A stretch of DNA of 64,000 nt from Allosphingosinicella sp. (GCA_049590095.1 JBAWCC010000047.1:1988-65987), one strand, 5' to 3'. Numbered from the stretch's first letter, positions 22,742 through 44,442 are shown. The notes: generated from the letters alone by a model not told the origin. Made by a program: numbers and translations.

Positions 22742-23817
22742 AGTGCTGTCGGCATACGCGAAACATCTCCAAAGTATGCTGTAGAACGCGCACTCGCACG
22801 ACTGAACCGCGAACGTCACTTGCCCCGACTCGTGTCGCGTCCTGTTCAGATTATGCCTTCGCTGAGCGGAGTCAACCCCACCAGCCTAAGGTAAAGTTCG
22901 CGGCAAGATCAGACACTTTGCCTTGTCTACTAGACTTTGATGACAAGTCGTCTCCTGTCGGTTGTCTGTAGACCGGGACGTGGATCGAAGGGGGAGAGTC
23001 GTGAGGTGCGGTGCGCCTTCTTACTTTGAACGCGCAGCGTCGAGAGATCACGTCGGCTCAGTCGATAGCTGCTCGTCGGGGGAGCAGGACAACTAGGCGC
23101 ACTGGCGGTCAATCTTGAATGCCAAGTATCTTCTAGTAAGTAATGCGAATTGATTATCTGCCGTAGCCAAATCGCCTAAGCCTAAAATAATAGTGCAAAA
23201 TCGAAAGAGGGTAGAGTCTCTGATAAAAAGAAGCCTTACGGAAGGACCGACAAGTTTTTCTCAAAGTCAGCCCAGCCTAGTGTCAGGACACAACGGAAGA
23301 CTTGCAGTTGCGAACCAGATTGGCAGAAGCGCGCCCACTGCGCCCTCCTCGACCATTATTCGGCGGCAATGCTGGCGGGCGGCTCTGTGAAAACACATCT
23401 GGAGGGAATTCGGCACCAGGCCTACGCTCAACCCAAACAGCCTTCTCAGCATTCGCCCATATGTCGATTAGATGTCTCGGCCCTCGATCTATACGTCACG
23501 GTCGTCCACCATTGTCACCGACGTGCGCACCTTTATGCACCATGGCCGCGCTGCTGGCTGAGACACTCGGGAGCTGCGAGTTGGCGGCCACCGGATCTCG
23601 CGCATTGTTACGACGTCCACATGCTTATGCAGGCCGAGGTAGGGCAACACGCGATAGCCGCTCCAGCTTTAAGCCCGATTGCGTGCTCCACGCCGGATGC
23701 TCAGCGACCAGCCGGATTTCGGCGCCGCGAGCGACGCTCCGCGAACTTTCGCGCTGGTTCCCGAAGGCGCGATGCACGACGCCCTCCGCCGCGACAAATC
23801 CTGACGCTCAACGGCTT

Positions 23818-24130
23818 GCAACAGCTGGCACAAAACGGTAGTACAAAAAGACACAAAGGCGGACTCAGCGCTGCGGTTAAATCACTGGCTTTGAAGTGCT
23901 AATTGCTCGAAGTGCCTCCTCCCCGTAGGGGTCACCACCTAGCACTTTAGCCATCCAGATAAGTGTTCCGTCCGCAGGAAGTGGCTGGGCGCTAGGATTC
24001 GCAGCCGGATTTTATCGGGACTAAGTCGTTGATTTTGTTGACGCAAAAAACGCGATTTACGCCACAAATGTACAGCGAATTGGCACAATTTTTCAAGCCA
24101 CTTTTTCACTGTTTTTCGATGGGTCGAGGC
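23818..24130 (+). repeat. Copy C of the dispersed intergenic element (long form)
   Basis: Aligns with copy D over ~310 bp: GCAACAGCTGGCACAAAAC.., CCTCCTCCCC at 23915-23924, hairpin GGCTG..CAGCC (23983-24006) plus T-rich run, then the common core up to TTTTCGATGGGTCGAGGC. Confidence 0.85.
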
Positions 24131-24274
24131 AGCCATCACAGGGCTCGGCCCGCGTCTCGTCAAACACCCCCGACGGCGCGTAGCTGACTTGGCGACCGAT
24201 CGACGCCGAGAAGACGGTTCGCTGCCGAAACCTCGGTTGTTAGCCTTAGCCTGAAATCAAGGTGACCTGGACGA

Positions 24275-27200
24275 CTACTGGGAGAGGATGGCCTCGATCC
24301 GCTTGAGATGGGTCAGGTATTCGACGTGGTAGGAAAGATCGCGCGCGCGGAGCAGCAGGGTGCGGGCTTCCGGCAGGTCGAGCTTGGACATAGCGGTGCC
24401 GAGCAGGGTCATGGCGCCGATCTTGCGAAGCTCCATGTCGTGGCGCGTGGCGATCTGCATGGCCGCCTGGGCGGATGAGGCGGCGGCGCGATAATCGCCG
24501 AGCTGGAGCGCGAGCTCGCTCCGGAGCAGCGCGACCCGGCAGACGATCCGCGGCGCTCCCATGGTCCGGGCGTAGGCCTCGACCTCGGCCAGCTGATCTT
24601 CGTAGGTTCTTCGGCTGGCCAGCGGCAGAACCGGGCCCGGACGAGCTATCTCGATCGCGAGCCCGGCAAGATGGGCGAGGTGCCGTATGTCCTCGTGCCC
24701 TCCCTTGGCGGCGAAACTCGCGGCCTGGTCCGCGAGCAATGCCGCCCGTTCCAAATTGGGCCCGCCGAGCCGCTGCAGGCATTCCGCCCACTGGACCGAG
24801 AAGATCGCCGCCGAACGATAGCGCCTGATCCGGATCAGCTCGGAGATCACGGCCTTATATTCGGCGTCGGCCGAGCGCTGGTCTCCCTGCAAATCGCGAA
24901 TCAGCGCCAGATAGCCTCGGGCGATGGCGCGCAGCGCTGGCGTTTCGTCGCTTTCGTCGCGGACCCGGCCAAGTATCTCCTTCGCCTCCCCAAGCCGTCC
25001 GCGCTCGATCTGGGCGATCGCGCGATTGACGCCGATGCGCGCCTGGAGCGCGCCCCAGCCGCGAGTCTCGATACGCTCGCGCGCGATTCGGCTGGCATGG
25101 ACGAGCAGCGCGACGGCGTCCGAGAACCGCCCCTGCGCAAGGCTGATCACTCCGCACTCGTTGAACAGCCAAACGATCTCCTCGGCATGGAAGGTGCCGC
25201 GGAAATCGAGCGGCCCTGCCCTAGTCAGGCGGGTGGCCAGCCGAAGCATCCAGCGGACGCGCAAGCGGTGGCTTTCGAAATAGCCGCTTTCGGGCGTCTC
25301 CAGCCCCTCATGCTCGTAGGTGCTGAAGCGGGAGACGACCCCGACCGAATAGATCGACCTCAAGGCTCCGTAAGCCGCCCGAAGGCGGGCGCTTCGGAGC
25401 TCGCGGGTCTGCTTGCCGTCCGTCGATCGGTCGAGACGCTGGGCGAGATCCAGATAGGGATCCGGCGAGCCGTGCGCCCGCTCGTCGAGCGCCTTCTCGA
25501 ACAGCGATAATTGGTCGATGAGGTTGCGGACCCGCCGGTGGCCCTCGGCCGTCGGACGCGGCAGGTCGTCGGGCTGAGTGGCGTAGAGCGACACGGTGAG
25601 CTGGTCGACCTGCGAATAGTCAATGTTGGGCGCCTTGAACTGAAGGAATATGTGGCGCCGGATCGCCTTGTGCGTGGCGTAGCGATGGCCGCGCAGCGAG
25701 TCGGCCTCGTCCTCGGGGCCCTTGGCCGCCACCCGGTAGACGAGGCAGCGCTGGACAAGCAGGTCCATCATCCTTTCGAGAATTTCCCTCGCCTCGTCGT
25801 CTTCCTCGCGCTCGGCGGTCGGCGCCGGCAGCTTCGCGACCACCCGCTGCAGGGCGGTGGCGATCTTCTCGATGCCGGTCAGCACCCGCAGCTCGACCGG
25901 CTGGCCGATCAGCGCCAGCGAGACCAGGATGTTCTCCTGAAGCTCGAACAGCAGCGCGGCCGGCACGCCGCTCAGCTCTTGCGTCCCAGGCACCGCGACC
26001 GCGAGCTTCTTGCCCAGAGCGGAAAACTCGTCCGAACAATAGTTTTCGAGGACAAGCTTAACGGCGATCTCGTCGCGCGTGTCCGGCGCGCGGCCCACGG
26101 TGTTGCGGCGAAGCCGCTCGACGAAATCGCGCACCGGATAGAGGTCGACCACATTCTCCGGCGTGCCGGGCAGCCTTCGGACGATCATGTCGTCGATCGC
26201 CGCGAGCACGACCGTCATCGCGTAGCGATTGTGGCCCACGGCCACGTCGATCATGTTGAAAAAAGTCCAGGCCTCAGGGCGGACCTTGACGGAGCCCTTG
26301 TCGAGTATCTCCTCGACGGACGCCCGCACCCGCGCGCCGCCATTTTGCCACGTCGTCCGGTTCGAGCCGAGATCCTTCTGATAGGCATTGAGGACCTCGA
26401 GCATCACCGCCTCAATCCCGGCTCCCGCAAGCCAGGCGCCGGAAGCGCGGGATTTCCCCGCTCCGGCGAGCCTCGCCTCGAAGGCGTCGCGAACGCCGAT
26501 CTGGAATTCGAGCACCGATTGGTCGGTGCCGAAGCGCAATCTCGTGGCGTCGGGATATGCGTCGTCCAATTCGTCCGCGAAGGTGACGCAGGCGTCATCG
26601 GAGGGCTTCAGACTTCCCAGGTGCGCGAGTGCGGCGGCGGTACGCGGAAAGAAGCGGACGGCTAGCGTGACCGGCCGCATCCGGTCCAGAAAATGGATAT
26701 ATGTATCGAGCCGGTCGCGCTCCTCACTGCTGATCTCGGCCTCGCGGCCGTCGGCGATGGCGGTCGCCGCCTCGTGGCCGAACGCGTGCTCCATGCGTCG
26801 CTGGAGGACAGTCGTCGCCTTCGCAGAAAGGCCGACGGGCCTCAGGAATCCGACGGTCCGCCCGTCTTCCCGTGCGGCCGCCTCGCGCAGCGTCGTCGGC
26901 AGATGCTTTTCGTTGACGAAGAAGATGAAGTCGATCGGGGCCTCGTCGTATTTCGACGAGGTCAGAATCTCGAACAGCCGACCGACCTGGGCATTCTTGC
27001 GCCCGCCCTCGCCGTCGAAGAAGACGCTGACATGGTTCGTGATGACGACCAGCCGCTCCACCTCGCTGGCCGGTTTGGGCCCGACGGCGTGCAGTCGCTC
27101 CAGGGCGTGCTCAAGCCGTCCAAGCCGGTCGCCCCGGAGCTTCTCGCACTCCTTCAGGAAGCGCTCGGACTCGCGGCCGGAGCCCGGCATCGTCCGTTCG

Positions 27201-29803
27201 AGGATCCAGGTCAGGCGATCGAAGGTCGAGATGACCTCGTGCGACAGGCCGAGATTGAAGAAGATCCTCGCAATCCCCTTGGTCGACACCGCGTCCGCAC
27301 GCCGGCCCGCGGGCGCTTTGACGAGCCCCAGCCACTCGCACAGCTGCGCAAATCGCCGCGGGGAGCGCATCGCCGCGAAAACGTGGCCCCTCCCCGTGCC
27401 TCTTTCCCCCAGCAGGTAGAAAATACGTCTGCCGATCTTGGGCGGACGGACGATCGGCTGGCGCGGTCGGCGATTCGGAAAAAGAGCCCGGATCGGACCG
27501 CACGGCCGGACCCCGCATTCGGAGCGCAGGGAATCGCGCAGCGTCTCCATGGCGGGCGACGGGGCGCCGACGAAGAAGCGGTCGCTGGCCGGCGCCGCCT
27601 CCTGCCGCGCCTCCGCGTGAACGGCCCCGGCGGCTTCGACGCCGGCTTCGCTGTCCAAGTCCCGCAACAGGGTGCGATGCCGCGTGTATTCGAGTCCGTC
27701 CGTACCGCCGAGCGGTGAGCACTCGCCATCGGGCTCGCGCGAATCCGGTTCGCTTCCCCAATCTTCCAGCCACTCGGTCCACCGCTTCGCCATGTGCGCG
27801 AGCCAGGCGGTCAGGAAGGTGGTCAGGATCACGCTCTTCATCCCGTCGTTCAGCGCTCTCAGCGCCGGCAGCAGGGATTTGGGCAGGTCGGGCTGCCTCG
27901 AGATCGAATCAATCTGCTTCAGATGGCGGATGATCGTTTTCAGAGCCTTGACGGCACTCCTTTCCCCTTCGACGTCTTTGAGATTCGCTTCCACCTCCAT
28001 CAGCTCGCTCGCCGTCACCATTACGCTGCCCGGCTTGGTCGGCGGATCTTTCAATGGAAGCTGGTCCGATTTCAGCCGGTCATATAGCCGCTGCTGAAAG
28101 GCGAGGAGTTTGGTCATGAAGGGTTCGGAACCGGCCGCGGCTACCGGGTTCACGGTTCGGTTGATATGGCCGTAATAGAGCTGGTAGACACCGTAGCGGC
28201 TCAGGTTCAGCCGCTGCCTCTCCCGGCGCTTCTCCTCGGGGTCCATCGCCGGGAGCACCGCCACCGCGGGCCGGTCGCATAGCCTCGACACGCCCTCGCT
28301 GAAGGCTCGCAGCGGCCTCAAAATGTCGGGCTCGCTCATGCCCAGGCCGACGAACAGCAGCGGATTGGCGGTGAAAATCAGCCGCATCGCGTCGTCGGCG
28401 CATCCGCTGGGATCGTCGTCGCGGGCGTAACGCTCGCGATAGTCGCGCTCGCTCAGCACCAGCCACGAGCCGGGAGTCTTCGCGCGACCGTGGAGGTGCA
28501 GGATCTGTGGCCGATGCTCGCGCGTGTCTGCGCCGTAATCGTAGAGGAAGGCGGCCGAGCCCGGCTCGTAGGCCATCACCTCGGCCCGTTCCGAGCTCGG
28601 CGTCATCAGCATGCTTCGCGATCGCGAGCTTTTCCCCGCCGGCGACGACGACGGGATTTCGCCTGCCAGTGGGGCCGTCTCCGTTAGCTCCTCGAAGCCG
28701 CGCGAGGCCAGCAGGCGGGTAATCTCGTCGTCATAATTGGTGGTGAGGAACCGCTTCACGTTGCATTCGTCGAGAAGCACCGCGAGTGGGTCGCGATGCC
28801 TCGGCATATCCGGCCGGGGAAGCGGCTTGACGGGCCGGACGGACGCCTCGGTCTGCTCTTCCTTCCTGGATTTGGCCGCCTGCCTCGCGCGTTGCTGCGC
28901 CTGTCGAAGAACCGAATCGAGCCGGGCCGGCGTGAGCAGGTGCAGCGCCGCCTCGACGACGTGGCGGGTATCGGGTCCATCCTCCGAAACGGAATTGAGC
29001 TGCTTGCGCAGCAGCGACCTCAACCCCTTCTCGGCAAGACCGCAACTTCTTGGCGGTGCCAGGTACTTTGCAACCTGCCGCCGAAATTTTTCGTCCTCGT
29101 AGATCAGGCGCGCGAGCCGGCTGGCGAACTCATCCGCAAACGGACTGAGCGGCTCCTCGACGGTGACGGGGAAGCGCAAGCTCCTTTGCAACTCCTTCAG
29201 GACAGCAACTGCCTCCGATTTTTTCCGTATCTCCAGCAACCGCCCGATCATCAGCTCGATACGCCCGCGCCCGTCCTTGATCTGCCACCGCAGGCGATCG
29301 CGGAGGGCGGCGGCGGCGCGCTTCGCCTCGCGCCGACTGTCGGCGTCACGATCGCCGAGCCGCTTCAGCTTCAGGCGGCGCAGAGCGACGAGGACGTTTT
29401 CGCAAGCCTCGAACCAGAAAGGTATCGAATCCGCATCTAACTTATCCTTGGGAAGGGCTCCGAGGACGCTCACCGCCGCGTTCAGGACAGGGTGCGCCTC
29501 CCGCCACTGTTTCGAGCCTCCGTGGGCCTTTTGCTCCTGCTCGACCGCCTCGTGGACCGCCGCGGCCGCGTTGCGGAGAAGCTCCTCCCAGGACGGCTGG
29601 CCATAGCCATTGCTCACTCCGGAGCCGACCACGGCGATCAGCCGGCGGCCGTTCAGCGCCCGGGCGAGCTGTGCGATGGCGTGACGCTCGAGCAACTTGA
29701 CGTCGAACGAGCCGAGCAGCCTTTGCTCCGCATAGACCCAGTCGTGGAGGACCTGGCCGGGCTCTTCGTTAGATATCTCGGCCGAAGCCGATGGTCCGGT
29801 CAC
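24275..29803 (-). CDS. giant cytoplasmic SIR2-like / degenerate P-loop NTPase-like / TPR protein (~1,842 aa)
   Basis: No signal peptide. SIR2_2-type motifs LIAVVGSGVSNGYGQPSWEELL, FLTTNYDDEI, ILHLHGRAKTPGSWLVLSERDY and LLFVGLGMSEPDIL. P-loop-like FYLLGERGTGRGH. Helical-repeat (TPR-like) C-terminal ~300 aa. GTG 29803 forms a GTGA overlap with the TpsA stop (longest ORF start is 29908). Confidence 0.75.
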   Translation of the reverse strand: MTGPSASAEISNEEPGQVLHDWVYAEQRLLGSFDVKLLERHAIAQLARALNGRRLIAVVGSGVSNGYGQPSWEELLRNAAAAVHEAVEQEQKAHGGSKQWREAHPVLNAAVSVLGALPKDKLDADSIPFWFEACENVLVALRRLKLKRLGDRDADSRREAKRAAAALRDRLRWQIKDGRGRIELMIGRLLEIRKKSEAVAVLKELQRSLRFPVTVEEPLSPFADEFASRLARLIYEDEKFRRQVAKYLAPPRSCGLAEKGLRSLLRKQLNSVSEDGPDTRHVVEAALHLLTPARLDSVLRQAQQRARQAAKSRKEEQTEASVRPVKPLPRPDMPRHRDPLAVLLDECNVKRFLTTNYDDEITRLLASRGFEELTETAPLAGEIPSSSPAGKSSRSRSMLMTPSSERAEVMAYEPGSAAFLYDYGADTREHRPQILHLHGRAKTPGSWLVLSERDYRERYARDDDPSGCADDAMRLIFTANPLLFVGLGMSEPDILRPLRAFSEGVSRLCDRPAVAVLPAMDPEEKRRERQRLNLSRYGVYQLYYGHINRTVNPVAAAGSEPFMTKLLAFQQRLYDRLKSDQLPLKDPPTKPGSVMVTASELMEVEANLKDVEGERSAVKALKTIIRHLKQIDSISRQPDLPKSLLPALRALNDGMKSVILTTFLTAWLAHMAKRWTEWLEDWGSEPDSREPDGECSPLGGTDGLEYTRHRTLLRDLDSEAGVEAAGAVHAEARQEAAPASDRFFVGAPSPAMETLRDSLRSECGVRPCGPIRALFPNRRPRQPIVRPPKIGRRIFYLLGERGTGRGHVFAAMRSPRRFAQLCEWLGLVKAPAGRRADAVSTKGIARIFFNLGLSHEVISTFDRLTWILERTMPGSGRESERFLKECEKLRGDRLGRLEHALERLHAVGPKPASEVERLVVITNHVSVFFDGEGGRKNAQVGRLFEILTSSKYDEAPIDFIFFVNEKHLPTTLREAAAREDGRTVGFLRPVGLSAKATTVLQRRMEHAFGHEAATAIADGREAEISSEERDRLDTYIHFLDRMRPVTLAVRFFPRTAAALAHLGSLKPSDDACVTFADELDDAYPDATRLRFGTDQSVLEFQIGVRDAFEARLAGAGKSRASGAWLAGAGIEAVMLEVLNAYQKDLGSNRTTWQNGGARVRASVEEILDKGSVKVRPEAWTFFNMIDVAVGHNRYAMTVVLAAIDDMIVRRLPGTPENVVDLYPVRDFVERLRRNTVGRAPDTRDEIAVKLVLENYCSDEFSALGKKLAVAVPGTQELSGVPAALLFELQENILVSLALIGQPVELRVLTGIEKIATALQRVVAKLPAPTAEREEDDEAREILERMMDLLVQRCLVYRVAAKGPEDEADSLRGHRYATHKAIRRHIFLQFKAPNIDYSQVDQLTVSLYATQPDDLPRPTAEGHRRVRNLIDQLSLFEKALDERAHGSPDPYLDLAQRLDRSTDGKQTRELRSARLRAAYGALRSIYSVGVVSRFSTYEHEGLETPESGYFESHRLRVRWMLRLATRLTRAGPLDFRGTFHAEEIVWLFNECGVISLAQGRFSDAVALLVHASRIARERIETRGWGALQARIGVNRAIAQIERGRLGEAKEILGRVRDESDETPALRAIARGYLALIRDLQGDQRSADAEYKAVISELIRIRRYRSAAIFSVQWAECLQRLGGPNLERAALLADQAASFAAKGGHEDIRHLAHLAGLAIEIARPGPVLPLASRRTYEDQLAEVEAYARTMGAPRIVCRVALLRSELALQLGDYRAAASSAQAAMQIATRHDMELRKIGAMTLLGTAMSKLDLPEARTLLLRARDLSYHVEYLTHLKRIEAILSQ

Positions 29804-32800
29804 CGGCAGCTCCCCGCAAGCGGCCTCGGATCGTTCGGAAACGGATAGGGGCCTCGCGCCCTTAGGCCCAGTTGGCTCACCAAGCCGTCGTTGCGGGTCC
29901 CCGCGCACTGACTAATGAGGATTCCGAAGGCGTCGACGAACGAAGTAACCAGCTCTTGCGTGCCTTCGCTGACGTCCTCGACGTCGCTGTCGAGGAGCAG
30001 GTCCCCATCCACCAGCAGCACGTTAGGGACGTCGGCGGATCGAATGAAGAAGCCGCTGGTGATCCGAACGTTGGCCCCGCCCGCCTGGCCCAAAGCGAGG
30101 ATCGTGGCGCCGTCGGAAATGATCGCCAGCGGCTCGCCGATGGTGATTCGGCCGCCGGTCAGCGACGACGACGAGGTCGTGATCAGAACCGGGTTGAGGC
30201 GGCCGCGAAGGATCATGAGGCCGTCGCTCGGAAGTCGGATATTGATGTCGCCGGCCGGTCCCACGGCGTTGGTCGTCAGCACCGCGCCGTCGGTCAGTAT
30301 GACTCGGTCGGCGGCGATATTGATCGAGCCCGCCGCCCCCCCACCCAGCGCCGCCGCCTCGATTCCCGACCGCGTTCCGTCCGCCAGAAACGTCCGGGCC
30401 GAGACGTTGATGTTACCGCCGTTGCTCGGGGTGCCGGTGGTGGCGGAAGCGATCAGAACCCCGCCGTCGAGCAATTCCAACCGGTCGACGTCGATCGTCA
30501 GGGTGCCGCCGTTCGGGGCCGCGCCCGTGCTCGTGGAGATGGCCGATCGCCCCGTCGAGTCGAACCCGGAAACCCGCAGGGTCGCGTCCGGACCGACGAT
30601 CCGCACGTTGCCGGCAGCGCTGGCCGTACCGCTTATGTCGGACTGGATTCGGCTGAAGCCGGTAACCGTGCCGAGACGGCCGATCGCCACGTCGACCGCT
30701 CCGGCCGCGCCGGACCCGCTCGACGAGGTGGAGATGGTCGACCGGTCTTCGAGCAGCAGGTCCCGACGCGCGTTGACCAGGATCGCGCCGGCATCGCCCG
30801 TGCTCGCCGGGCGCGCGACGTCGGGATCGCCGCCGATGCTCTCCGAGCGCACCGATGCATTGCGCAAGGTGACGTCGGCGGCGTCGATCGCGACACGCCC
30901 GGCGTCGCCGCTCGCCGGCGCCCCCCCCTGCGGTGAGACCGTCTGCGAGATGATGTTGGCGCGATCGATGAGAAGGCCGGCCTGGGCAGTGACGGCGATC
31001 GGCCCGCTCGATTGCGAGCCGGTCGTCTCCGCAGCGATCCGGGTGCGTCGCGGCGCGTCTCCGGTGGGCTGGTCGCGCTGCCCGAGCAACTCGATCTCGC
31101 GGCCGCTGATGCTGATGCCGGCCGGCGGCGCCGCCCCCTGAGGGCCGGTCGAGCTCGACACGATCTGGATCAGGCCGCCGGGCGATCCGTCCGGAAGGGT
31201 GCCCGTCGACAGCTGGTCCGACGGCAGGAAGCCGATCGCGATCTGGTCCGCCGCCTCGATGCGGATGCCGCCGGTGCCGGCCGACAGACCCAGCGCGTTA
31301 GAGGAGATGTTGGAATTCGACAGCGTGATATCGTCGGCCGATCGGATCGTGATCGAGCCGGCTCGGCCCGAGGCCCCGGTAACCGGCGAGGGGTCGGTTC
31401 CGGTCGCCGTCGTGCTGATCAGCGTGCGCGAGGCGGCGATCGAGCCCTGGGTCGAGGTCAGCGAGACGTCGCCGCCGCTTCCGCGTCCCGTGGCAAGGCT
31501 CTCGATTCGGAATCCGGCGTCCATGGTGATCGACCCGGCCTGCAGGCGCAGCGCCCCTCCCGGCGCATCGCCTTCGGTGCGGCTGATCAAATTGGCCGGA
31601 CTCACGGGGGCCAGCAAGGACTGGCCGGTCAGGACCATCGCCCCGGAGACAGTGACTTCGATGTCCCCCGCCCGACCGGCGGCGACCGCGGTGCTCGCGA
31701 GCCGTCCCCCGGTCATCTGGAACGTGGCCGCGTCGATCCTAAGATTGCCGGCGCGGCCGCCGGCGTCGGAAGCGGTGTCGAAGATGGCATTGCTCAACCT
31801 CACCGTGCCGACATCGATCCTGATGTCGCCCGCATCGGCGGCGCCGGTCCGCCCGCTGATCGAGGCGTTGGCCATGTCCAAAGTGGCGGCCGGCCCGACG
31901 ATCTCGATTCTCGAATGCGTAAAGTCGAGGGGGATCTCGCCATTGTACAGGGCGCCGACCTGCGCTCCCCGGGTCGACGAGGGAGCGCCGCGCATCTGCA
32001 GCAGGTCCCGGACCTGCAGGCTGAGGAGATAAGGCGCTCCGGCGCCGTCACCCAGTATGCCGATATGGCTCGGGCCATCCATGATAAGGCGCGTAGCCCG
32101 AAGGAAGATGTCGCCGCCATCGATGCCGCCGCCGGGGGAGCCGAAGCCGCCGGCTCGGATCGAGCTGGAATCGAAATTGCGCGGATCGCTGACCACGCGC
32201 AGGTCGCCGGCCGACAGCGCGATCGCGGCGCGGTCCCCGCGCAAGTCGGTTGCCGGGCTCCAGACCGCTATTCGCGACTCGGAGATGAGGATCTGGCCGG
32301 CGGCGTCCGGCAGGGCTTGGCGGGGGTCGACCGCAATCTGGGCCGCGCCGCCGCCGACTGCCGCCATCCGAACCATCGTGTCCTCGAACAGGAGGTCGGC
32401 GCGGTCGAGGTTGATATTGCGGGCGGTAAAATGGGCGGCATCGCCGATGCCGGTCCGGATGCGAGCGCCGCCGGTCACGAAATTGCCCAGGAATTCGATG
32501 TTGCCGCTGCCGCCGCCGGAGAGGAAGCCGAAGCTGGCGGGCGAGGCCATGGCGAAGGTCGAGCCGTCGGCCGAGGCCGCGCGCAGCTGAGTCCCGTCGA
32601 CGAAGTTCAGCGAGTCCGCGGTGGAGGCGTAGAAGGCGCGCGGAACGTCGACCCGCGCGTCGGGGCCGAAGACGATGCCGGCAGGATTGATGAAGTAGAA
32701 ATCGGCATTGGCGAAGGCGGTCGAATCGATCCGGCCGTAGAGGTCCGAAGGGTCGCCGCCGGTGACCCGGTTGATTACGTTTCGGACGTCCGCCGCCCCG

Positions 32801-33135
32801 GGGCCGAACCAGCGTGCGGTGTCGCTAGCGCCGAGGTCGAAGCGGTTGAAGCTGTGGAACAGGTTTTGCGAGGGATTGGAGGCCGGACCGCTATAGCGGC
32901 CGCCGCCGATCGTATAGGTCCCCGCCGGTCCCGGCGGCGGCGCGATGGTGGTGCCGGTGGTCAATTGCGGGGCGGTATCGGGGATGATGGCGGTCGGCGG
33001 CTGGGCCGGCGCGGGGAAGGCGGCGAGCGCGAGGGCGAGTGCGATGAAGCTGGCCCTGGAGCGGCAGGATGTGGAGCAGCACCTCTTGAGCGTTCTTTTC
33101 TCGACGCTCCGCGCTGCATCGCCGTTACTCCTCAT
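29800..33135 (-). CDS. TpsA-type exoprotein (filamentous-haemagglutinin-like, 1,111 aa)
   Basis: Extended signal peptide (..SFIALALALAAFPAPAQ). TPS secretion-domain motifs NLFHSFNRFDL, VINRVTGG and FYFINPAGIVFG. The remainder is Gly/Ala/Ser/Asp-rich beta-helix-type repeats. No VENN/CT-toxin boundary seen. Confidence 0.85.
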   Translation of the reverse strand: MRSNGDAARSVEKRTLKRCCSTSCRSRASFIALALALAAFPAPAQPPTAIIPDTAPQLTTGTTIAPPPGPAGTYTIGGGRYSGPASNPSQNLFHSFNRFDLGASDTARWFGPGAADVRNVINRVTGGDPSDLYGRIDSTAFANADFYFINPAGIVFGPDARVDVPRAFYASTADSLNFVDGTQLRAASADGSTFAMASPASFGFLSGGGSGNIEFLGNFVTGGARIRTGIGDAAHFTARNINLDRADLLFEDTMVRMAAVGGGAAQIAVDPRQALPDAAGQILISESRIAVWSPATDLRGDRAAIALSAGDLRVVSDPRNFDSSSIRAGGFGSPGGGIDGGDIFLRATRLIMDGPSHIGILGDGAGAPYLLSLQVRDLLQMRGAPSSTRGAQVGALYNGEIPLDFTHSRIEIVGPAATLDMANASISGRTGAADAGDIRIDVGTVRLSNAIFDTASDAGGRAGNLRIDAATFQMTGGRLASTAVAAGRAGDIEVTVSGAMVLTGQSLLAPVSPANLISRTEGDAPGGALRLQAGSITMDAGFRIESLATGRGSGGDVSLTSTQGSIAASRTLISTTATGTDPSPVTGASGRAGSITIRSADDITLSNSNISSNALGLSAGTGGIRIEAADQIAIGFLPSDQLSTGTLPDGSPGGLIQIVSSSTGPQGAAPPAGISISGREIELLGQRDQPTGDAPRRTRIAAETTGSQSSGPIAVTAQAGLLIDRANIISQTVSPQGGAPASGDAGRVAIDAADVTLRNASVRSESIGGDPDVARPASTGDAGAILVNARRDLLLEDRSTISTSSSGSGAAGAVDVAIGRLGTVTGFSRIQSDISGTASAAGNVRIVGPDATLRVSGFDSTGRSAISTSTGAAPNGGTLTIDVDRLELLDGGVLIASATTGTPSNGGNINVSARTFLADGTRSGIEAAALGGGAAGSINIAADRVILTDGAVLTTNAVGPAGDINIRLPSDGLMILRGRLNPVLITTSSSSLTGGRITIGEPLAIISDGATILALGQAGGANVRITSGFFIRSADVPNVLLVDGDLLLDSDVEDVSEGTQELVTSFVDAFGILISQCAGTRNDGLVSQLGLRARGPYPFPNDPRPLAGSCR

Positions 33136-33991
33136 CGGGCATCTCCCGCTCGGCCTGCGCAGCCCTTTGGTTCCGAGCTTCGACCGCAGCCGGCGTCATT
33201 CGGTCACATGCGGCTTGGCGCTGGCCAGTGATGTAATTCCCCTCGGCGGCTTTGAGCTCGTTTCGCAATTCGTCCCTGAAGGCCGCGATTAAGGCTTCTT
33301 CGCCCAACCGCTTGTCTTCCGGATCCTCGGACCAAGGCCACCAGGAGCGAGAACGACTATTGCTATCGAGCTGAGCGGCGCATCGCTCCGCCATCTGGCC
33401 GATATCAGTTCCATAAGCCCGGTCACTGAATATGGCCTGCTGTCTTGCAAAGTAGGGGCCGAAGTTCCTGGCAAGATCAATGGCCTTCTGCCCGAAAAGC
33501 AGACAACTGGTTTTCTCGTTGCACACACCAGATTCCACGCAATTATTTACTGAGTCATAGAAGTCGTTGAAACTTGAAAAGTCTTCTATAAGGCCTCTGT
33601 AGTGATCAGATGGATATATTATTTTTAGATAAAACTCATAACGCTGGTCTGCCGACAACGAGTTAGGATCTATCATATCGAGCTCTTGACTAGCGCCGCC
33701 AGTAGATCTTTGCACAAACAACGCTTTGCACAGCAGGGCATCATCTACTCGAGAGCGTAGAGCCTCCATCGTTGGTGATGTCCATTTCTTCTGAAGTTCC
33801 ATCGCCTTGTCGCTGGTCCATTGATCATAGGCGACCCAACCTGCGTAAGCGAGAATTGCGGCCTGGAGGAGCGTAGCAATGGCTACCCAGCCCTCCGCGC
33901 TTTGCCGGATCAGCCATGCGGGCCGGCCCATCACCCATTGGAGCGCGCGGCCGAGCCATTTTCGCACCCGGATCAACCATTTTCGGTTCAT
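33125..33991 (-). CDS. single-pass membrane protein, unknown function (288 aa)
   Basis: ATG 33991 lies 3 nt after the upstream stop, and the 3' end overlaps the TpsA start by 11 nt. One TM helix (WVAIATLLQAAILAYAGWVAY). Contains a clearly AT-richer stretch (~33500-33760). No family recognised. Confidence 0.6.
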   Translation of the reverse strand: MNRKWLIRVRKWLGRALQWVMGRPAWLIRQSAEGWVAIATLLQAAILAYAGWVAYDQWTSDKAMELQKKWTSPTMEALRSRVDDALLCKALFVQRSTGGASQELDMIDPNSLSADQRYEFYLKIIYPSDHYRGLIEDFSSFNDFYDSVNNCVESGVCNEKTSCLLFGQKAIDLARNFGPYFARQQAIFSDRAYGTDIGQMAERCAAQLDSNSRSRSWWPWSEDPEDKRLGEEALIAAFRDELRNELKAAEGNYITGQRQAACDRMTPAAVEARNQRAAQAEREMPDEE

Positions 33992-33994
33992 GAC

Positions 33995-34375
33995 CTAGGG
34001 CCGCCTGATGGAACCGCAGTGCCTCTCGATTAATGAGAGCAGCGCCGGAGGAATTATCCCGCGCTTGAGCAAATCGCGGATGCATTTAGCTGTTCTAGAT
34101 GAGAGGTAGATGTCGGCACCGGGTTTCCTATCAGGATCGTTCGGATCGAGCGTGACGGGATCGCAGTCCAGGGTGACTTCACGGATACCCGGTGACTTTT
34201 CTTCATCAGCGGCCGTGCGAGCCATCCACGCCTCGAAGCATTCGCGGTCCTTGGCCTCGGGCATCAAAAGCTCATTGCCATCGGTCGAGAGGACGGCGCG
34301 TTGCGCCCGGCCTGCCTCAGCGGATCCAAGGCAAAGACATGCCGCCAAGGCGATCCTGCCAATCAATTTCATCAT
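33995..34375 (-). CDS. small secreted 4-Cys protein, unknown function (~126 aa)
   Basis: ATG 34375/34372 is preceded by GAGGAGGAGG. Signal peptide MMKLIGRIALAACLCLGSAEA. Four Cys in the mature part. An alternative GTG at 34405 would overlap the TpsB stop. Confidence 0.6.
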   Translation of the reverse strand: MMKLIGRIALAACLCLGSAEAGRAQRAVLSTDGNELLMPEAKDRECFEAWMARTAADEEKSPGIREVTLDCDPVTLDPNDPDRKPGADIYLSSRTAKCIRDLLKRGIIPPALLSLIERHCGSIRRP

Positions 34376-34401
34376 AGCCTCCTCCTCGAGGTGGTACGCA
34401 T

Positions 34402-36426
34402 TCACAATCGGAGCGGCCGCAGCGTCACGCCGAAGTGCAGGCCGTCATTCACCAGTGCGGGACCGGGGCCGGCAAGATCCCTGCCCAGACGCAATCCATA
34501 ATCAACGCGGACGGTGATCGCTTGCGATGGGATCCAGGCGAGACCCGCGCCGATGGCTCCGAGCTCGTCGTCCCGGCGGGTCGCCGGATTGAGATTCGAA
34601 GCCCAGGCGGCGTCAGCGAACAATGTGACTCGGAAGCGCTGCGGGTCGAAGCCGCCACCTTGGCCGAACGGCGCCCGCTCGCGGCCCAGGCTGAAATAGC
34701 GACTCAGCTCGACTGAGCCGACCAGCCCGCGATCGACCAGCAGAGCCGCCTGGGGGTAGCCGCGCACGGAATTCGGTCCGCCGACGGGCAGCCTTTCCGA
34801 CGTGTAGAGCAGTTGGTTCGACCATTGCCCCGACAGACGGGCCGTCAACAACAACTCCTTCCAGCGCAGCTGGCGGGAATAACCGATCTGGCCGCTGATC
34901 AGGACGAAGTGGCGGGACGGGGTCGCGAGTCCGGCGATGTCCGTCGCACTCCCGTCCAAGCCGAAGGACAAGCGGAGGCGCCCACCGAGCGTCCAGCCGC
35001 GTTCTCCGCCGGGAGTCGTGCGGCCGCGTTGAAGCCAGTCCGCTGACGCCCGGATCGCGGTGACGTGGGAACGTCCGTCGACGGACCCGGGCGCGAAGGA
35101 AAAGGGCTCGCCGAGCAGGAAGGATTGCGAGCTTCGATGGGAGAGGGTGAGCCCCAGCGTGAGGTCGCGCGCGCTCGCCCATCCGACCGGCGCATCGCCA
35201 ATGCGGCGCGCCGCGAGCCGGCAGGACTCGATGCCATCGCCGGCCGTGGCGCGCCGGGCTTCGCGCAGCAACGGCTCGCCGAACAACGGCGTCAGCGGGC
35301 AGCGTATCGCCCCGTAATAGAGAGATCCCTCGAAGCCCCAGCCTCGCGAGCGAATGTCGAGCGGGCGAAGCGCCGGATCGACGATCTCGGCTTCGTTGAA
35401 GTCTGCGGCGAGCCGCGCCGACCATCGCGGCCGAAGCGCTACGAGCAGGGATCCGGCGCCGTCCAGAGCGCCTTCCGTCGCGCCGGCATCCGCCGAGAAG
35501 AGAAAGCCGGCAGGCCCACGCAGCGTCAGACCCGCGAATGCGCGGATGCTTCCCGTCGATGGCGGCCGGTCATTGGCTACGCCGATCTCGGCTTCGATCC
35601 ACGGCTTGGTGACCACGAATGGCGGCGGGGTGGGCGCGTCGTCGGCGGTCCGGTCGCTCGGCAGCGCTATAGCCTGCCCGCCCAGGCCGTCACTCGCGTC
35701 GCGAGGGGAGACCAGCTCTGCTTTGCCTCTGCCTTCCGTGCCGGGACGGGGCCTCAGGCCCATGTTGACGTTGTCGATCCACGGGTCATTGTCATCGGCG
35801 AGTCGTCTGAAATCCCGCTCCAGCAGATAGACGTTGAAAGGCGCCTTCGGATTGCAGCCCTGCATAAGCCGCCGCCGCACGTAAGGGTACGAACCGGAAG
35901 GAAGACCGCGACCTCTGGCCTCGCGAGCAATTGCGGAAGCATCCAAAGGGCGATCGAACGCGCAAGCTCTGTCTTCGCCGTCGACCAGCCGGCCTTCGAC
36001 GGGCTCGATATGCAACTTTTCCCCCTCCTCCTTCAGAAGGATCCCGGAATTGACATAGCCATTTTCGTAAAAGGCTGTGTTGGCCTTCTCGATGTTCGCG
36101 TAGAGCTGCGGCAGGCGCTCGCGGTCGATCGCGAAGTCGGTCTCCTTTCCGGTAACGTCGGCGCCCGTGCCGTTGGCGAGACAATCGCGGAGCCAGTCGA
36201 CGTTCAGAAACCGCCGGCCGCTGGGCTTGCAGGGGTCGGCCGGCTTGGCCCCTCCGCGCCTCGGCGGCCGGATCATGACCGGGAATACGGTCTGCCAGCG
36301 CGATTTGGGCGGCAAGACGACCATTGCCTGAGCCGATTTTCGGGCGGCGGGCTCGCCAGCAACCTGGGCCGGCGCGCACAGAGCGACCCAGGCCAGAAGT
36401 GCCGCGAGGCCGGCCCGGCTCGACAT
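34402..36426 (-). CDS. TpsB (ShlB/FhaC/HecB-family) Omp85-type outer-membrane transporter
   Basis: Signal peptide MSSRAGLAALLAWVALCAPAQVAG. POTRA-like N-terminal region (LHIEPVEGRLVD). Conserved loop-6 motif GGPNSVRGYP and beta-barrel-type alternating C-terminal region. Confidence 0.8.
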   Translation of the reverse strand: MSSRAGLAALLAWVALCAPAQVAGEPAARKSAQAMVVLPPKSRWQTVFPVMIRPPRRGGAKPADPCKPSGRRFLNVDWLRDCLANGTGADVTGKETDFAIDRERLPQLYANIEKANTAFYENGYVNSGILLKEEGEKLHIEPVEGRLVDGEDRACAFDRPLDASAIAREARGRGLPSGSYPYVRRRLMQGCNPKAPFNVYLLERDFRRLADDNDPWIDNVNMGLRPRPGTEGRGKAELVSPRDASDGLGGQAIALPSDRTADDAPTPPPFVVTKPWIEAEIGVANDRPPSTGSIRAFAGLTLRGPAGFLFSADAGATEGALDGAGSLLVALRPRWSARLAADFNEAEIVDPALRPLDIRSRGWGFEGSLYYGAIRCPLTPLFGEPLLREARRATAGDGIESCRLAARRIGDAPVGWASARDLTLGLTLSHRSSQSFLLGEPFSFAPGSVDGRSHVTAIRASADWLQRGRTTPGGERGWTLGGRLRLSFGLDGSATDIAGLATPSRHFVLISGQIGYSRQLRWKELLLTARLSGQWSNQLLYTSERLPVGGPNSVRGYPQAALLVDRGLVGSVELSRYFSLGRERAPFGQGGGFDPQRFRVTLFADAAWASNLNPATRRDDELGAIGAGLAWIPSQAITVRVDYGLRLGRDLAGPGPALVNDGLHFGVTLRPLRL

Positions 36427-36455
36427 CTGCGTGATCGGGCTCGGCCTCCCCCCCC

Positions 36456-38261
36456 TCACCGCCAATTTCCGATCACCACGAACACGCCCCAATTGGCCGG
36501 GTAGCTTAGATCATTGGACTGACGCCGCGTCGTCTCGGTGCCCGCATAAGCAAGCTGCACTCGCCTCAGCGCCTGAGCCGCGGATTGCGCGGAGTCCGAA
36601 TCGTAATAGAGGCTCAGGAAGTCGGAATTCCTGTCCAGCTTGCTGTTGAAATAGCTGCTTGCTGTCTTGGCTTGTACCGGCGCGAGGGCCCCCACCGTAC
36701 TCAAGGCCCCGCCCCGCAGCGCCGCGCCGGCGAGGCCAAGGTCCCCGGCGCCTCCGACCGCACCCTCGCAAGCGAGGAAAATCAGCAGATCCAGGCCGCG
36801 AGACTTGCGCCGCCCCTCGCGCAACCATTCCTCGATCCGGCTCACCGGCATCCTGATCGACCCCGAGCCGGTTTCCGGATGAATCTGAAAATAACTGGTA
36901 CCGGGCAGATATTGCGCATGAGTAGCGAGCAACAGGGTCGAAAAATCGCCTCGCCTCAACGCCGTCTGCAATCCCTCGCGCGTGAACGGCCTCAGCCGTA
37001 CGGAGCCCACCTCGTCCCCCGCCGGAAGGGAAGCGATGGCGAGACCGGCCGAGCCGGAAAGTGCGGGCTCGACGATCCAAGGCGAAATATCCTCTTCTTT
37101 GGAGACCGCTGGCACGAAGCCGGAAAGGGCGGCTATTCCCAAGCCGCCGAGCATCAAGCCGCCGCGTACTCCCGGTCTCGGCGAGGGTCGAACATAAGCG
37201 AGGCCGGGACCCACGGCGATCGCGACCCGCCGGACAAGGTAGTCGGGCTCGCCGGAAGGGAGATCCGGTTTGCCGTGAAGGAGGGCCCAGGGAACATTTC
37301 GAAGCACAGGATCGGGAAAGAATATCAGGGTGGGGACCTTCTCTACCTCCGCTCCGGTCGAGTCCGTCCTGGGTGGGTCCGGCGGAATGAAACGCCGATT
37401 CAAAGGCTGGATGAGCAGTTCATAGAGGTTGTGCGCATCTGCCGAACCCCAGTCGGCTCGTGGACCGCTCAAGGTCGGATTGGAAAATTCGCGTGCGGCG
37501 AGAGGGAGACGCAGGAACAACTGTTTGGCGATGGGGGAAAGTATCGAGGCGCCGCTACCCTCACCCGCTCCCAGCAGCGTCCAGCCGTCTCCGGCTGTGG
37601 CCCTTCCTGCCCTGTCCGGTTTTCTCCCGACCAGCAAATAGGTGCGGCGGCTGCCGACGATCGGATAGACGATCGTCTCTCCGTCCAGCAGATGCTTGGG
37701 CGCCAGGGAGACCTGGAGCGGTTCGCACGAATCCGCGAGAACGAGGTCGATCTGCGCGCGCCGCGCCGTCTCGCCGAGATCGAGCAGCGAGGCGATCAGC
37801 CGCCGGTCCGTCGGTGTGGAACCGTCGGCGACCCGCTCGTAGGCGAGAGCGTCGGCGGCGGCCTGGAAAATCGGCAGAAGGCGAAGGGTGAACAGGTCGG
37901 CGTCGCGGCCGGCCGAATCCGCCGACCTCGTCCCCCGATCCTGCGCGAGCACGAGCTTGACGGTCTCGAACGCCTTGAGGACATGTCGCGGGTTCGGCTT
38001 CCCGCCCTCACCACCGAGCTCGGCCAGCTTCATCCAGGCCTGCGCCGTCGCGTAGGTCGGCCCGTCGTTCGCCGCTTGGGCCAGCAGGCGCTCGCATTGC
38101 AACTGACTCGCGCAGACACTCGCGGCAGGCGTTGCGGACGCTTGGCCAAGCGCTAGGTCTGCCTGCCCCGGCGCGGCGACGGCCGCGGGCCAACAGAGCC
38201 CCGACCCTGTCGCGGCAAGCAGAAGCGACAAGACTAGCTTCAGTTTCCCACCAAGTACCAC
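36456..38261 (-). CDS. secreted CHAT-domain (caspase-like) protease
   Basis: Signal peptide (KLKLVLSLLLAATGSGLCWPAAVAAP). C-terminal CHAT-type dyad context with His in FSTLLLATHAQ and Cys in LDLLIFLACEGA. First gene of the operon; GTG start. Confidence 0.7.
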   Translation of the reverse strand: MVLGGKLKLVLSLLLAATGSGLCWPAAVAAPGQADLALGQASATPAASVCASQLQCERLLAQAANDGPTYATAQAWMKLAELGGEGGKPNPRHVLKAFETVKLVLAQDRGTRSADSAGRDADLFTLRLLPIFQAAADALAYERVADGSTPTDRRLIASLLDLGETARRAQIDLVLADSCEPLQVSLAPKHLLDGETIVYPIVGSRRTYLLVGRKPDRAGRATAGDGWTLLGAGEGSGASILSPIAKQLFLRLPLAAREFSNPTLSGPRADWGSADAHNLYELLIQPLNRRFIPPDPPRTDSTGAEVEKVPTLIFFPDPVLRNVPWALLHGKPDLPSGEPDYLVRRVAIAVGPGLAYVRPSPRPGVRGGLMLGGLGIAALSGFVPAVSKEEDISPWIVEPALSGSAGLAIASLPAGDEVGSVRLRPFTREGLQTALRRGDFSTLLLATHAQYLPGTSYFQIHPETGSGSIRMPVSRIEEWLREGRRKSRGLDLLIFLACEGAVGGAGDLGLAGAALRGGALSTVGALAPVQAKTASSYFNSKLDRNSDFLSLYYDSDSAQSAAQALRRVQLAYAGTETTRRQSNDLSYPANWGVFVVIGNWR

Positions 38262-38418
38262 GATCGACGCCCCAAATTCGATTCGCCCCCGCTAATAGTA
38301 AACGTAAGTGCGCCTTTGGAAAGCCTGTTGAGCCTCCTTTCGATTCACTCAATCACTATGTCGTTGCGATTGCGGCGGAAGCGCCGAAAGGTTCCTTGGC
38401 CATAGAACCGGAACGCTG

Positions 38419-38690
38419 GCAACAGCTGGTACAAAACAGTAGTACAAGTAGCCACAAACGACGGACTCGCCAGCGCGGCTAAGCCACTGGTTTCAATCGC
38501 CAAAAGCGGCTCCTCCTGTAGAGGTCACCTAACCACTTTAGCCATCCAGATGAGTGTCGTGTCCGCAGGAAGTGGCCGGGCGGCAGGATTCGCAGTCGGT
38601 TTTTCCGTGGGCTAAGTCATTGGTTTTATTGACGCAAAAAACGCGATTTACGCCGCAGATGTACAGCGAATTGGCACAATTCTTCAAGCC
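38419..38690 (+). repeat. Copy D of the dispersed intergenic element (long form)
   Basis: GCAACAGCTGGTACAAAAC.., CTCCTCCT at 38510-38517, hairpin plus TTTTT (~38575-38604), and core ..TTGACGCAAAAAACGCGATTTACGCCGCAGATGTACAGCGAATTGGCACAATTCTTCAAGCC. Confidence 0.85.
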
Positions 38691-38825
38691 GAAATGTGAG
38701 CACCTGAGGGACCAACGATGCATCGCTGCTGGCGGTGAATCAGGACCCGTCCGGCGATAGGACCCGAGCTAACGAGCCTCACAGCTGGCGCTCGTCTCCC
38801 AGGCATTTCGTCACGCGGACGCACG

Positions 38826-39413
38826 TCAGCCAGGAGCGCCCTGATAAGCCCCGTATGCTTCAACGGCGGCGGCCACTGCCTCGGCCCGCTTGCCGTTATG
38901 CAACAAACGACGGTGGGGGATGTATCGGTCGACAACGCCTGCCACTTTCGCCCCGGCAAGCCGCCGGAAGACCGTGTCGTCATCACGTCCCTCGCCGAGC
39001 GGCACGTCCGGATCGAGCACCGTCAGAAAGACCAGGTCATACTCCGCGGACCAGGCCCGACAGATACTCTCGAGCCGATTGAGACGGCCCGGCTCCAATT
39101 CCCGATCTGTGTGTTCTAACGCCGCAAGGAGATATCCGAGTGCATCGGGGACCGGGCGGTCGACGAGGATCACCTCGGCAGCCAGCGTCGCCTGGGTTTC
39201 AAGTTCAATCGCATGGGCCATCAACCAAGCCGTGCTTTCAAAGGTATGCTGGGAAAGAATCGGAAAGCCCAGCTCCCGTGCTTTGGCAGCGCTGTCGTGA
39301 ACGTACCTCACCACCACTCCGCGAGCTTCGAATTCGTTTTGAAGCACGCCTAGAAACGTCGACTTGCCCGTAGAGTGCGTGCCCGCGACGGCGATCCTAT
39401 AAGGCCGCATCAC
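38826..39413 (-). CDS. small P-loop ATPase (NadR/AAA_28-like)
   Basis: Walker A IAVAGTHSTGKSTF and Walker B-like VILVDR. The GTGATG start region overlaps the exonuclease stop. Confidence 0.65.
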   Translation of the reverse strand: MMRPYRIAVAGTHSTGKSTFLGVLQNEFEARGVVVRYVHDSAAKARELGFPILSQHTFESTAWLMAHAIELETQATLAAEVILVDRPVPDALGYLLAALEHTDRELEPGRLNRLESICRAWSAEYDLVFLTVLDPDVPLGEGRDDDTVFRRLAGAKVAGVVDRYIPHRRLLHNGKRAEAVAAAVEAYGAYQGAPG

Positions 39414-42465: not shown

Positions 42466-42470
42466 CCGCC

Positions 42471-43859: not shown

Positions 43860-44282
43860 CGGCTCCTCGGACGGCAGCAAGTGCGTCGTGCCTAGACGCA
43901 TCCATCGGCTCTGACCACGTTGATGTTGGGCTTGACGCCTCCGATCTGCCTTTCGATCGAACTTTTCGGTTTGTGTCGGGCAGTAGCAATTTTCAGTATT
44001 TATCGCTGAGATGTGTCAAATAATATGGCTAAGGCTTACATTCAGTCTCCATATGTTTTAAGATGAATTATCACGCATCCCCAGTCTTTCAGCCAAAATG
44101 TGCCTAGAGTTAATTTGGACAACGCAGCTATACTGCGACTGCGTTTGCTACATGCTGGAAGCTCGCCGTGATCGGCGTTTCGACGAGGGGCGAGGCACGC
44201 ACGACATGCCGTCGCATAGGCACTTACACGCGTCCGACGCGCATGATATGGGATTTACAGAATCCTGCCACGGAGAGACACA

Positions 44283-44438: not shown

Positions 44439-44442
44439 CGGC

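Follow-up and report, generated by a model that had tools for sequence, protein, structure and literature searches.

Does a secretion operon that ends in a giant SIR2 gene constitute one integrated device, or two modules of different origin that share a promoter? We addressed this question for six genes found in a 64,000-nucleotide (nt) stretch of DNA from Allosphingosinicella sp. (GCA_049590095.1 JBAWCC010000047.1:1988-65987), hereafter the window; loci used for comparison carry L numbers and individual proteins P numbers. All six genes are located on the minus strand between positions 24275 and 38261 and encode a CHAT protease, a two-partner secretion (TPS) pair (the transporter TpsB and the exoprotein TpsA), two small envelope proteins and, at the tail, a protein of 1,842 amino acids (aa), which we call the giant. 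An earlier annotation of the same sequence (the original prediction) had joined them all into a single candidate conflict or defence system. We consider it probable that the locus is a CHAT-associated TPS operon that gained a solitary, immune-type SIR2 gene at its tail and now co-expresses it. The two modules are separable, since giants occur alone without TpsA, TpsB or CHAT genes, CHAT-TPS modules occur without a giant, and one natural locus (L039) has deleted the giant.

A six-gene operon with a probably translationally coupled tail

36456-38261, minus strand: CHAT protease, 601 aa, Sec-exported and caspase-like (Pfam CHAT 5.8e-21)
34402-36426, minus strand: TpsB/FhaC-type Omp85 transporter, 674 aa, ATG start (Pfam ShlB 5.3e-11)
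33995-34375, minus strand: 126-aa secreted protein or possible lipoprotein, signal peptide MMKLIGRIALAAC
33125-33991, minus strand: single-pass membrane protein, 288 aa, C-terminal domain rich in Cys, orthologs in other loci
29800-33135, minus strand: TpsA beta-helical exoprotein, 1111 aa (Pfam TPS 2.3e-25, TIGR01901 8.4e-16)
24275-29803, minus strand: cytoplasmic giant, 1,842 aa, with SIR2, P-loop-like core and TPR-like tail
38262-38402, minus strand: 5' leader conserved between the window and L002, probable operon promoter region

The start codons of these six open reading frames (ORFs) were chosen from the N-termini of homologs and the ribosome-binding sites. Our calls reproduced the six minus-strand genes and the predicted spacing, which from the CHAT gene to the giant is 29, 26, 3, -11 and -4 nt; the 26-nt value depends on the ATG at 34375, and use of an alternative GTG at 34405 would turn it into a 4-nt overlap. 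At the last junction the tpsA stop and the start of the giant overlap in GTGA, and a GGAG precedes the GTG by 6 nt. A longer, 1,877-aa reading of the giant was discarded, since the GTG at 29803 agrees with the N-termini of its homologs, with the Shine-Dalgarno (SD) sequence and with the start called for the gene in both L001 and L002. Upstream, homology between the window and L002 starts at window position 38402, that is, 141 nt before the CHAT start.

A terminator inside the operon had been named in advance as a feature that would break up the unit. Terminator-like sites within it numbered 10, versus 11.6 expected by chance, so there was no excess. Between 23500 and 39000 the only promoter-like site was one borne by a repeat. 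This bears on the possibility that the two modules are juxtaposed without being co-expressed, the giant being transcribed from a promoter of its own in the 3' end of tpsA and the overlap being incidental. Giants that occur alone must indeed have their own promoters. However, besides the lack of a candidate site, both the 4-nt overlap and the SD sequence within tpsA have been kept in three diverged loci, and we regard this explanation as unlikely.

Domain architecture of the giant

28124-29686, minus strand: SIR2 NADase-type domain, residues ~40-560, with a ~240-aa helical insertion (Pfam SIR2_2 3.2e-15)
26504-27466, minus strand: P-loop NTPase-like alpha/beta core, degenerate, residues ~780-1100, with helical domains after it (AlphaFold2 model)
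24278-25366, minus strand: C-terminal TPR-like alpha-solenoid, presumed sensor (weak profile matches)

The AlphaFold2 model of residues 1-690 (pLDDT 85, pTM 0.88) matched folds that were essentially all anti-phage SIR2 NADases (ThsA, KomC, DSR2, SIR2-HerA, SPARSA), with probabilities up to 1.0 and E-values that were weak because of the 240-aa helical insertion. Residues N356, H436 and H438 were invariant in 40 homologs; N356 and H436 correspond to N391 and H471 in the numbering of the 1877-aa ORF. A search with PADLOC 2.0.0 gave only weak local SIR2 matches to LmuA, ThsA and Dsr1 (E 1e-4 to 1e-5), in agreement with the earlier suspicion that the locus falls outside the named systems. The dN/dS ratio of the giant was 0.24-0.31, indicating purifying selection and therefore that the protein is maintained. 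To judge from its modelled structure, it is most likely a NAD-destroying protein of immune type, with a defence-type SIR2 fold.

The model of residues 690-1420 (pLDDT 82.5, pTM 0.88) consists of an alpha/beta core and subsequent helical domains. Its fold matches were weak (best E 0.0099, TM <0.31) and corresponded mostly to AAA+/ORC-Cdc6 ATPases and, among nucleotide-binding leucine-rich-repeat (NLR) proteins, to NLRC4 and NRC2. The P-loop-like segment noticed originally is real but degenerate: the motif reads G-x-R-G-x-G-R-G (G-E-R-G-T-G-R-G in the window), with R801-G802-x-G804-x-G806 invariant and no Lys, and the would-be Walker B strand ends in N-H. The C-terminal tail matched TPR_19 with an E-value of 0.002, below the Pfam cut-off, and a TPR protein of the PDB in a weak profile match (E 0.12), while homologs of the giant carry TPR_12 and TPR_MalT. 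Among the domain calls of the original prediction, CHAT, ShlB, TPS and SIR2_2 passed the Pfam cut-offs and the TPR repeats did not.

Giants outside the window are mostly solitary

A word-indexed search recovered 45 homologs of the giant, all with SIR2_2 and almost all of 1.6-2.2 thousand aa. When 1.84 billion representatives were scanned in full by HMMER, using the middle region that is specific to the family, 181 clusters were obtained; in nearly all of them this region occupies the same position within a protein of 1.5-2.3 thousand aa. By these sequence criteria, the family appears small and coherent. Its members closest to the window giant are P0001 (75% identity, locus L001) and P0002 (67%, L002), both with TpsA directly upstream and the same 4-nt overlap, and in L002 the six genes are all present in identical order. 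The predicted synteny of the giant with TPS and CHAT genes stops there. At 28 other loci, where identity does not exceed 44%, the giant is solitary: L003/L004, L005 (Asticcacaulis biprosthecium), L006 (the contig carrying P0013, a Sphingomonas alpina protein), the P0022 locus and 25 metagenome loci (L010-L034). Neither tblastn nor profile hidden Markov models built for all three families detected TpsA, TpsB or CHAT at these 28 loci, and an all-against-all comparison of their flanking ORFs revealed no recurrent neighbour. Alignments of the solitary homologs cover 98-100% of the window giant; therefore, the TPS-linked giants carry no extra domain.

An alternative for the giant itself is that it acts as a NAD-dependent regulator or modifier of a housekeeping or TPS-related target, instead of as an immune NADase. 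Its degenerate P-loop, the weak enrichment in defence genes around solitary giants and the lack of any PADLOC family match would be compatible with such a role. However, its SIR2 domain belongs to the SIR2_2 class, not to the deacetylase class, and its fold matches are only to anti-phage NADases; moreover, the family has a patchy and rare distribution in variable or mobile contexts, and undergoes rapid gain and loss. We consider a regulatory function very improbable.

CHAT-associated two-partner secretion as a self-standing module

The first five genes contain the two elements that define two-partner (type Vb) secretion, an exoprotein with an N-terminal TPS domain and an Omp85-type TpsB in the same operon, and the 601-aa protein has the domain with a His/Cys dyad that defines CHAT peptidases (clan CD). 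This dyad, His448 and Cys498, was invariant (5 homologs), and the CHAT homologs also possess N-terminal signal peptides. The motifs quoted in the original prediction were all found in the translations (LLLATHAQ and LIFLACEG in CHAT, NSVRGY in loop 6 of TpsB, and NLFHSFNRFDL, INRVTGG and FINPAGIVFG in TpsA). TpsB is 79% identical to its L002 and L039 orthologs, and TpsA matched the TPS domain of HxuA in the PDB, where a sequence search with the CHAT protein gave nothing useful. The 126-aa protein has orthologs in L002 and L039 (43-50% identity); a 145-aa gene is called at the same position in L008, with no tblastn match to it, and searches of Pfam, NCBIfam and PADLOC gave no match for the window protein. 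Orthologs of the 288-aa protein occur in L002, L007, L008, L009 and L039; it had no family match, and its PDB sequence search yielded nothing useful.

Homologs of TpsA number more than 950, the majority from Sphingomonadales and Caulobacterales, and a CHAT gene was adjacent in 6 of the 6 contexts that we retrieved (L007, L008, L009, L037, L038 and L039). L007 (which matches an Allosphingosinicella MAG, or metagenome-assembled genome, protein), L008 (Sphingomonas) and L009 carry CHAT, TpsB, a gene of ~230-285 aa and TpsA; the giant is absent from all three, the L009 contig stopping 73 nt past tpsA, and the small gene was called in L008 alone. L037 (Blastomonas fulva) and L038 (Phenylobacterium) carry CHAT, TpsA and TpsB, also without the giant. 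In cyanobacteria, plasmid pNPUN01 of Nostoc punctiforme (L042 7830-12602; NPUN_RS34080/34075) encodes a TpsA followed after 12 nt by a CHAT protein, and pREB1 of Acaryochloris marina (L040 7827-13097; WP_012166786.1) a single 1,756-aa protein combining TPS (5e-51), TPRs and CHAT (2e-59). The adjacency of CHAT to TpsA/TpsB genes in other genomes, mentioned in the original prediction, was thus verified in L007-L009, L037, L038 and Nostoc. Like the window, the Nostoc, Acaryochloris, Blastomonas and Phenylobacterium loci link a TPS exoprotein genetically to CHAT, in their case by adjacency or fusion, but the order is CHAT-TpsA-TpsB or TpsA-CHAT, we saw neither of the accessory genes (126 aa and 288 aa) and the giant is absent. 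Judged from these sequences, the combination of CHAT and TPS is an old, widespread and self-standing association that extends from Cyanobacteria to Alphaproteobacteria.

Our literature search found no paper connecting the CHAT domain with two-partner secretion and no experimental study of the CHAT-TPS loci listed here. A scan of a collection of species-representative genomes, which excludes the window's own genome, with the CHAT alignment produced 600 pattern matches, of which 0 were real, the patterns being too degenerate. With a hand-made pattern for the CHAT C-terminus, matches were limited to 2 species genomes, one from Sphingomonas sp. Sphisp66 and the other an Allosphingosinicella MAG; these appear to represent the L008 and L007 loci already known. 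The plasmid collection contained no match for the operon DNA or the CHAT protein. As side observations, L038 (1-5494) encodes a second CHAT protein, with TPRs, and just upstream a protein of >3,875 aa without Pfam match; a DUF928 gene precedes the Acaryochloris fusion gene; and the Nostoc and Acaryochloris loci are surrounded by NB-ARC, caspase or RTX-type genes.

The TPS/CHAT arm might also be a weapon of the contact-dependent inhibition (CDI) type used against other bacteria, in which immunity or an accessory role would fall to the giant or to the small proteins. TPS systems do include CdiA/CdiB, L009 adjoins genes of an extracellular contractile injection system (eCIS), and NB-ARC and caspase genes surround the cyanobacterial examples. 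However, as originally predicted, TpsA has no VENN/pre-toxin motif and no toxin or PT domain, with Pfam recognizing the TPS domain alone. Instead of a variable C-terminal domain, its last 130 aa are conserved across loci with and without the giant (6 loci). No small polymorphic immunity gene follows tpsA, and a 1,842-aa SIR2 protein does not resemble immunity proteins. The lack of a toxin domain and the conserved C-terminus led us to reject identity with CDI, and a weapon of this general type is extremely unlikely.

One lineage, one event and a natural deletion

The linkage of the giant to the TPS operon was limited to one shallow lineage (window, L001 and L002). Such synteny in a single shallow lineage implies a single evolutionary event. 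In the window, L001, L002 and L039 the TpsA proteins are 88-89% identical, in a star-like pattern. L039 has intact TpsB, small, transmembrane and TpsA genes, the latter encoding a protein 89% identical to that of the window, but at positions 6886-7149 an ATGA overlap at the tpsA stop is followed by ~50 nt of the 5' end of the giant and then directly by its last 207 coding nt. This remnant corresponds to residues 1774-1842 (69 codons, 91% identical), ~5.3 kb of the gene having disappeared. Therefore, the ancestor of L039 had the six-gene unit and lost the giant later, leaving the TPS ORFs intact.

All six genes evolve with dN/dS values of 0.13-0.31. Their synonymous divergence (dS) in comparisons of the window with L002, L001 and L039 differed up to eight-fold: 0.28-0.30 for TpsA, 0.5 for TpsB, 0.8 for CHAT, 0.54-0.98 for the giant and >2 for the transmembrane protein. 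This unevenness suggests recombination within the unit rather than strict co-divergence, although saturation and codon bias limit the inference, and it hints at recombination or gene conversion keeping tpsA uniform.

These data bear directly on the idea that the six genes form one device. The TpsA/CHAT arm would sense an invader or competitor at the envelope and, together with the 288-aa protein as a relay, report phage adsorption, contact or failed secretion to the giant, which would then collapse the NAD+ pool. The tight operon with translational coupling speaks in its favour, as do the gene order kept in L002, the TpsA-giant overlap kept in L001, the movement of the entire unit as a single islet and the purifying selection on all six genes. 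However, all this rests on one evolutionary event; solitary giants have the same full-length architecture, so that no domain is specific to TPS-linked loci; elsewhere the TPS module is complete in the giant's absence; and L039 deleted the giant while its TPS genes stayed intact. A single system of envelope module and giant, as originally envisaged, did not withstand this single origin, the independent distributions of both parts and the L039 deletion, and we find it improbable, whether its trigger is taken to be an invader, a contact or a secretion failure.

An islet bounded by tRNA-Gln-derived repeats

38540-38760, minus strand: repeat copy D, upstream islet boundary
23950-24170, minus strand: repeat copy C, downstream islet boundary

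The window contains four copies (A to D) of an element of ~165-220 nt in the same orientation, at ~4900-5100, 15400-15620, 23950-24170 and 38540-38760. Read on the minus strand, it consists of a ~110-nt AT-rich arm, a core that is the 3' end of tRNA-Gln and a further downstream arm. The core measures 16-21 nt (21 nt in copy B); the sequence GCGAATCCTGCCGCCC occurs in copy D at 38578-38593 with 0 mismatches and in copy C with 2 mismatches. The AT-rich arm includes a sigma70-like TTGAAA-18-TACATT, and copy D has, by homology to the copy C site, a TTGAAG-18-TACATC facing the operon. Copies C and D also have ~250 nt in common on the downstream side. Both flank the six-gene unit, but not exactly as had been claimed, since copy C begins 124 nt past the giant stop and 317 nt separate the end of copy D from the start of CHAT; moreover, the two additional copies bracket unrelated gene sets, and the segments delimited by the four copies (10.5, 8.5 and 14.6 kb) differ in cargo, which is unrelated from one to the next.

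L002 possesses an intact tRNA-Gln(ttg) gene 430 nt upstream of CHAT and, at 14616-14782, an element copy 116 nt past the giant stop (80% identical to copy B over 170 nt, E 7.5e-36). Homology between the window and L002 extends from 141 nt upstream of CHAT to the giant stop; therefore, the six genes are the entire cargo of an att-bounded islet in two genomes. The portable cassette imagined in the original prediction thus has tRNA-Gln-element boundaries both in the window and in L002, and a tRNA 3' end directly repeated at the two boundaries is what characterizes tRNA-targeted islets. The tRNA-Gln core and the L002 arrangement led us to reject the view that the repeats are mere repetitive extragenic palindromic (REP) or promoter elements. 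No integrase domain was found in the scanned window ORFs, so an integrase for the islet would have to act in trans or be encoded outside the window. The window has no tRNA gene, and Rfam reported nothing at the gathering score and nothing meaningful on the repeat. The region can be interpreted as integrative elements and islets arrayed in tandem.

Proposed mode of action

The locus would be a 14.4-kb integrase-less islet, bounded by att-like repeats that stem from the tRNA-Gln 3' end, and would carry two separable modules under one promoter. In the first (five genes), TpsB would export the beta-helical TpsA, and the Sec-exported CHAT protease would act in the envelope, most likely maturing or releasing TpsA as SphB1 does FhaB, assisted by the two accessory envelope proteins (126 aa and 288 aa), which seem specific to the sphingomonad subfamily. 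The second would be the cytoplasmic giant, from a family otherwise composed of solitary genes. If it works as Avs5 and DSR2 do, recognition of an invader protein by the TPR-like tail would induce assembly and NAD+ hydrolysis, leading to abortive infection; this activation model is drawn from the fold class and the catalytic residues. The giant would have been captured once at the 3' end of the TPS operon in one sphingomonad lineage, where translational coupling to tpsA would ensure its expression, and it could be lost again without harm to the TPS genes.

Several points weigh against this interpretation. NADase activity, a role in defence, secretion of TpsA and its cleavage by CHAT are all predicted from sequence. 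Defence genes are sparse beside the solitary giants, PADLOC yielding about a dozen matches on 135 flanking ORFs, a result that neither strongly supports nor contradicts a defence-island habit. In the absence of a canonical Walker A Lys and Walker B acid, an ATP-dependent switch similar to that of Avs proteins is doubtful. L039 demonstrates that the TPS genes survived as intact ORFs, not that they continued to function. Finally, the GTGA-type overlap has been kept in three loci despite 25-33% divergence of the giant protein, and this retention, together with the joint movement of the six genes in one islet, may reflect some selective link among them.

Comparison with known systems

Among known systems, Avs5/SIR2-STAND (AVAST type 5; PMC11897194, PMC12931631) shares with the giant a SIR2 effector, a nucleotide-binding-type core and a C-terminal repeat sensor. 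Both are single large cytoplasmic proteins with NAD+ depletion as the predicted outcome, and the giant has the N-terminal SIR2 effector with catalytic Asn and His typical of Avs5. However, it gave no PADLOC 2.0.0 Avs match at E <=0.01, and no Avs5 structure was found among its listed sequence matches or top 50 fold matches. It differs further in the replaced Walker A Lys, the 240-aa SIR2 insertion, its length of 1,842 aa and its position at the end of a secretion operon. DSR1/DSR2 (PMC11850899) resemble it in the SIR2 NADase head followed by a long helical sensor in a single gene, and DSR2 was among its top fold matches; yet the Dsr1 model matched only locally (residues 464-530, E 1.7e-4) and not over the full length, and the giant has a P-loop-like core and a TPR-like tail, both lacking in DSR2. 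As for Thoeris, ThsA models matched only the N-terminal 50 aa of the SIR2 domain, and no gene for the TIR partner was found among the Pfam-scanned window ORFs. SAMD9/SAMD9L and their bacterial analogues (PMC12680541) likewise arrange SIR2, P-loop NTPase and TPR in this order within a single large protein of antiviral type, but the giant lacks SAM, AlbA_2 and OB domains, and no SAMD9 structure appeared among the PDB matches listed.

For the secretion module, the FhaB/FhaC system of Bordetella, in which a dedicated envelope protease, SphB1, processes the exoprotein (PMC6070651, PMC8263021), offers a working model for the CHAT gene, as both combine a TPS pair with an envelope protease. Nevertheless, SphB1 is a subtilisin autotransporter encoded elsewhere, whereas the window protease is a Sec-exported caspase-like protein encoded by the first gene of the operon, and TpsA, unlike FhaB, lacks a long prodomain. 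CdiA/CdiB are similar as a TpsA/TpsB pair on a mobile island; in contrast to CdiBAI, the window has no VENN motif, polymorphic C-terminal toxin or immunity gene, and the giant is found downstream of tpsA instead.

Genomic neighbourhood of the islet

Directly beyond copy D, a three-gene operon (38826-41124, minus strand) encodes a 377-aa protein of unassigned family, a DEDDh exonuclease (PADLOC DEDDh 1.5e-25, PDC-S48 1.9e-20) and an AAA_28 ATPase. A complete pair of Septu defence genes, PtuA (1e-136) and PtuB (1e-85), is located 3.4 kb upstream of the islet (41671-43901, minus strand), so that the islet has surroundings that are mobile and rich in defence genes. Farther away we found a radical SAM protein with a weak pVip-like match (44098-45579, plus strand), a ParB-like protein (48685-49551, minus strand) and a MobA/MobL relaxase (50218-52077, plus strand), which suggest an integrated mobilisable element adjoining the islet; comparison of the 46-58 kb mobile region with the plasmid collection gave trivial HEPN matches only. 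A stretch of ~2 kb of ORFs without Pfam match is enclosed by inverted repeats at 55266-55426 and 57362-57518, which are nested (lengths 58, 46 and 42 nt; complementarity 71-87%); the arrangement could represent either an insertion element or a palindromic junction. Further conflict-type genes, for a nucleotidyltransferase-HEPN protein (57651-58574, plus strand) and a ResIII/SNF2-type helicase (60149-62341, plus strand), occupy the window's right end.

On the other side, the segment between copies A and B contains a second giant ORF (8696-14635, minus strand; 1,979 aa) with a multicopper-oxidase domain, followed by SCO1/SenC and cytochrome c genes. Between copies B and C (16243-22819), where GC content is lower (0.57-0.63), we found a plus-strand ArgRS-like class I tRNA-synthetase paralog and a minus-strand operon for an aminotransferase, a HAD hydrolase, a saccharopine-dehydrogenase-like protein and a methyltransferase. 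These genes may represent a small-molecule pathway as islet cargo.

Implications

If the six genes did prove to be an integrated device, it would provide an outside-in trigger for an NLR-like immune effector. On the reading that we favour, the locus illustrates how a defence-type gene can be captured by an unrelated operon, become translationally coupled to it and then be lost, which calls for caution in guilt-by-association predictions of new defence systems. The giant family, absent from PADLOC 2.0.0 and with a Walker A motif devoid of Lys, offers a test of the need for ATP in NLR-like SIR2 effectors, and CHAT-linked two-partner secretion represents an unstudied type Vb class with a caspase-like partner.

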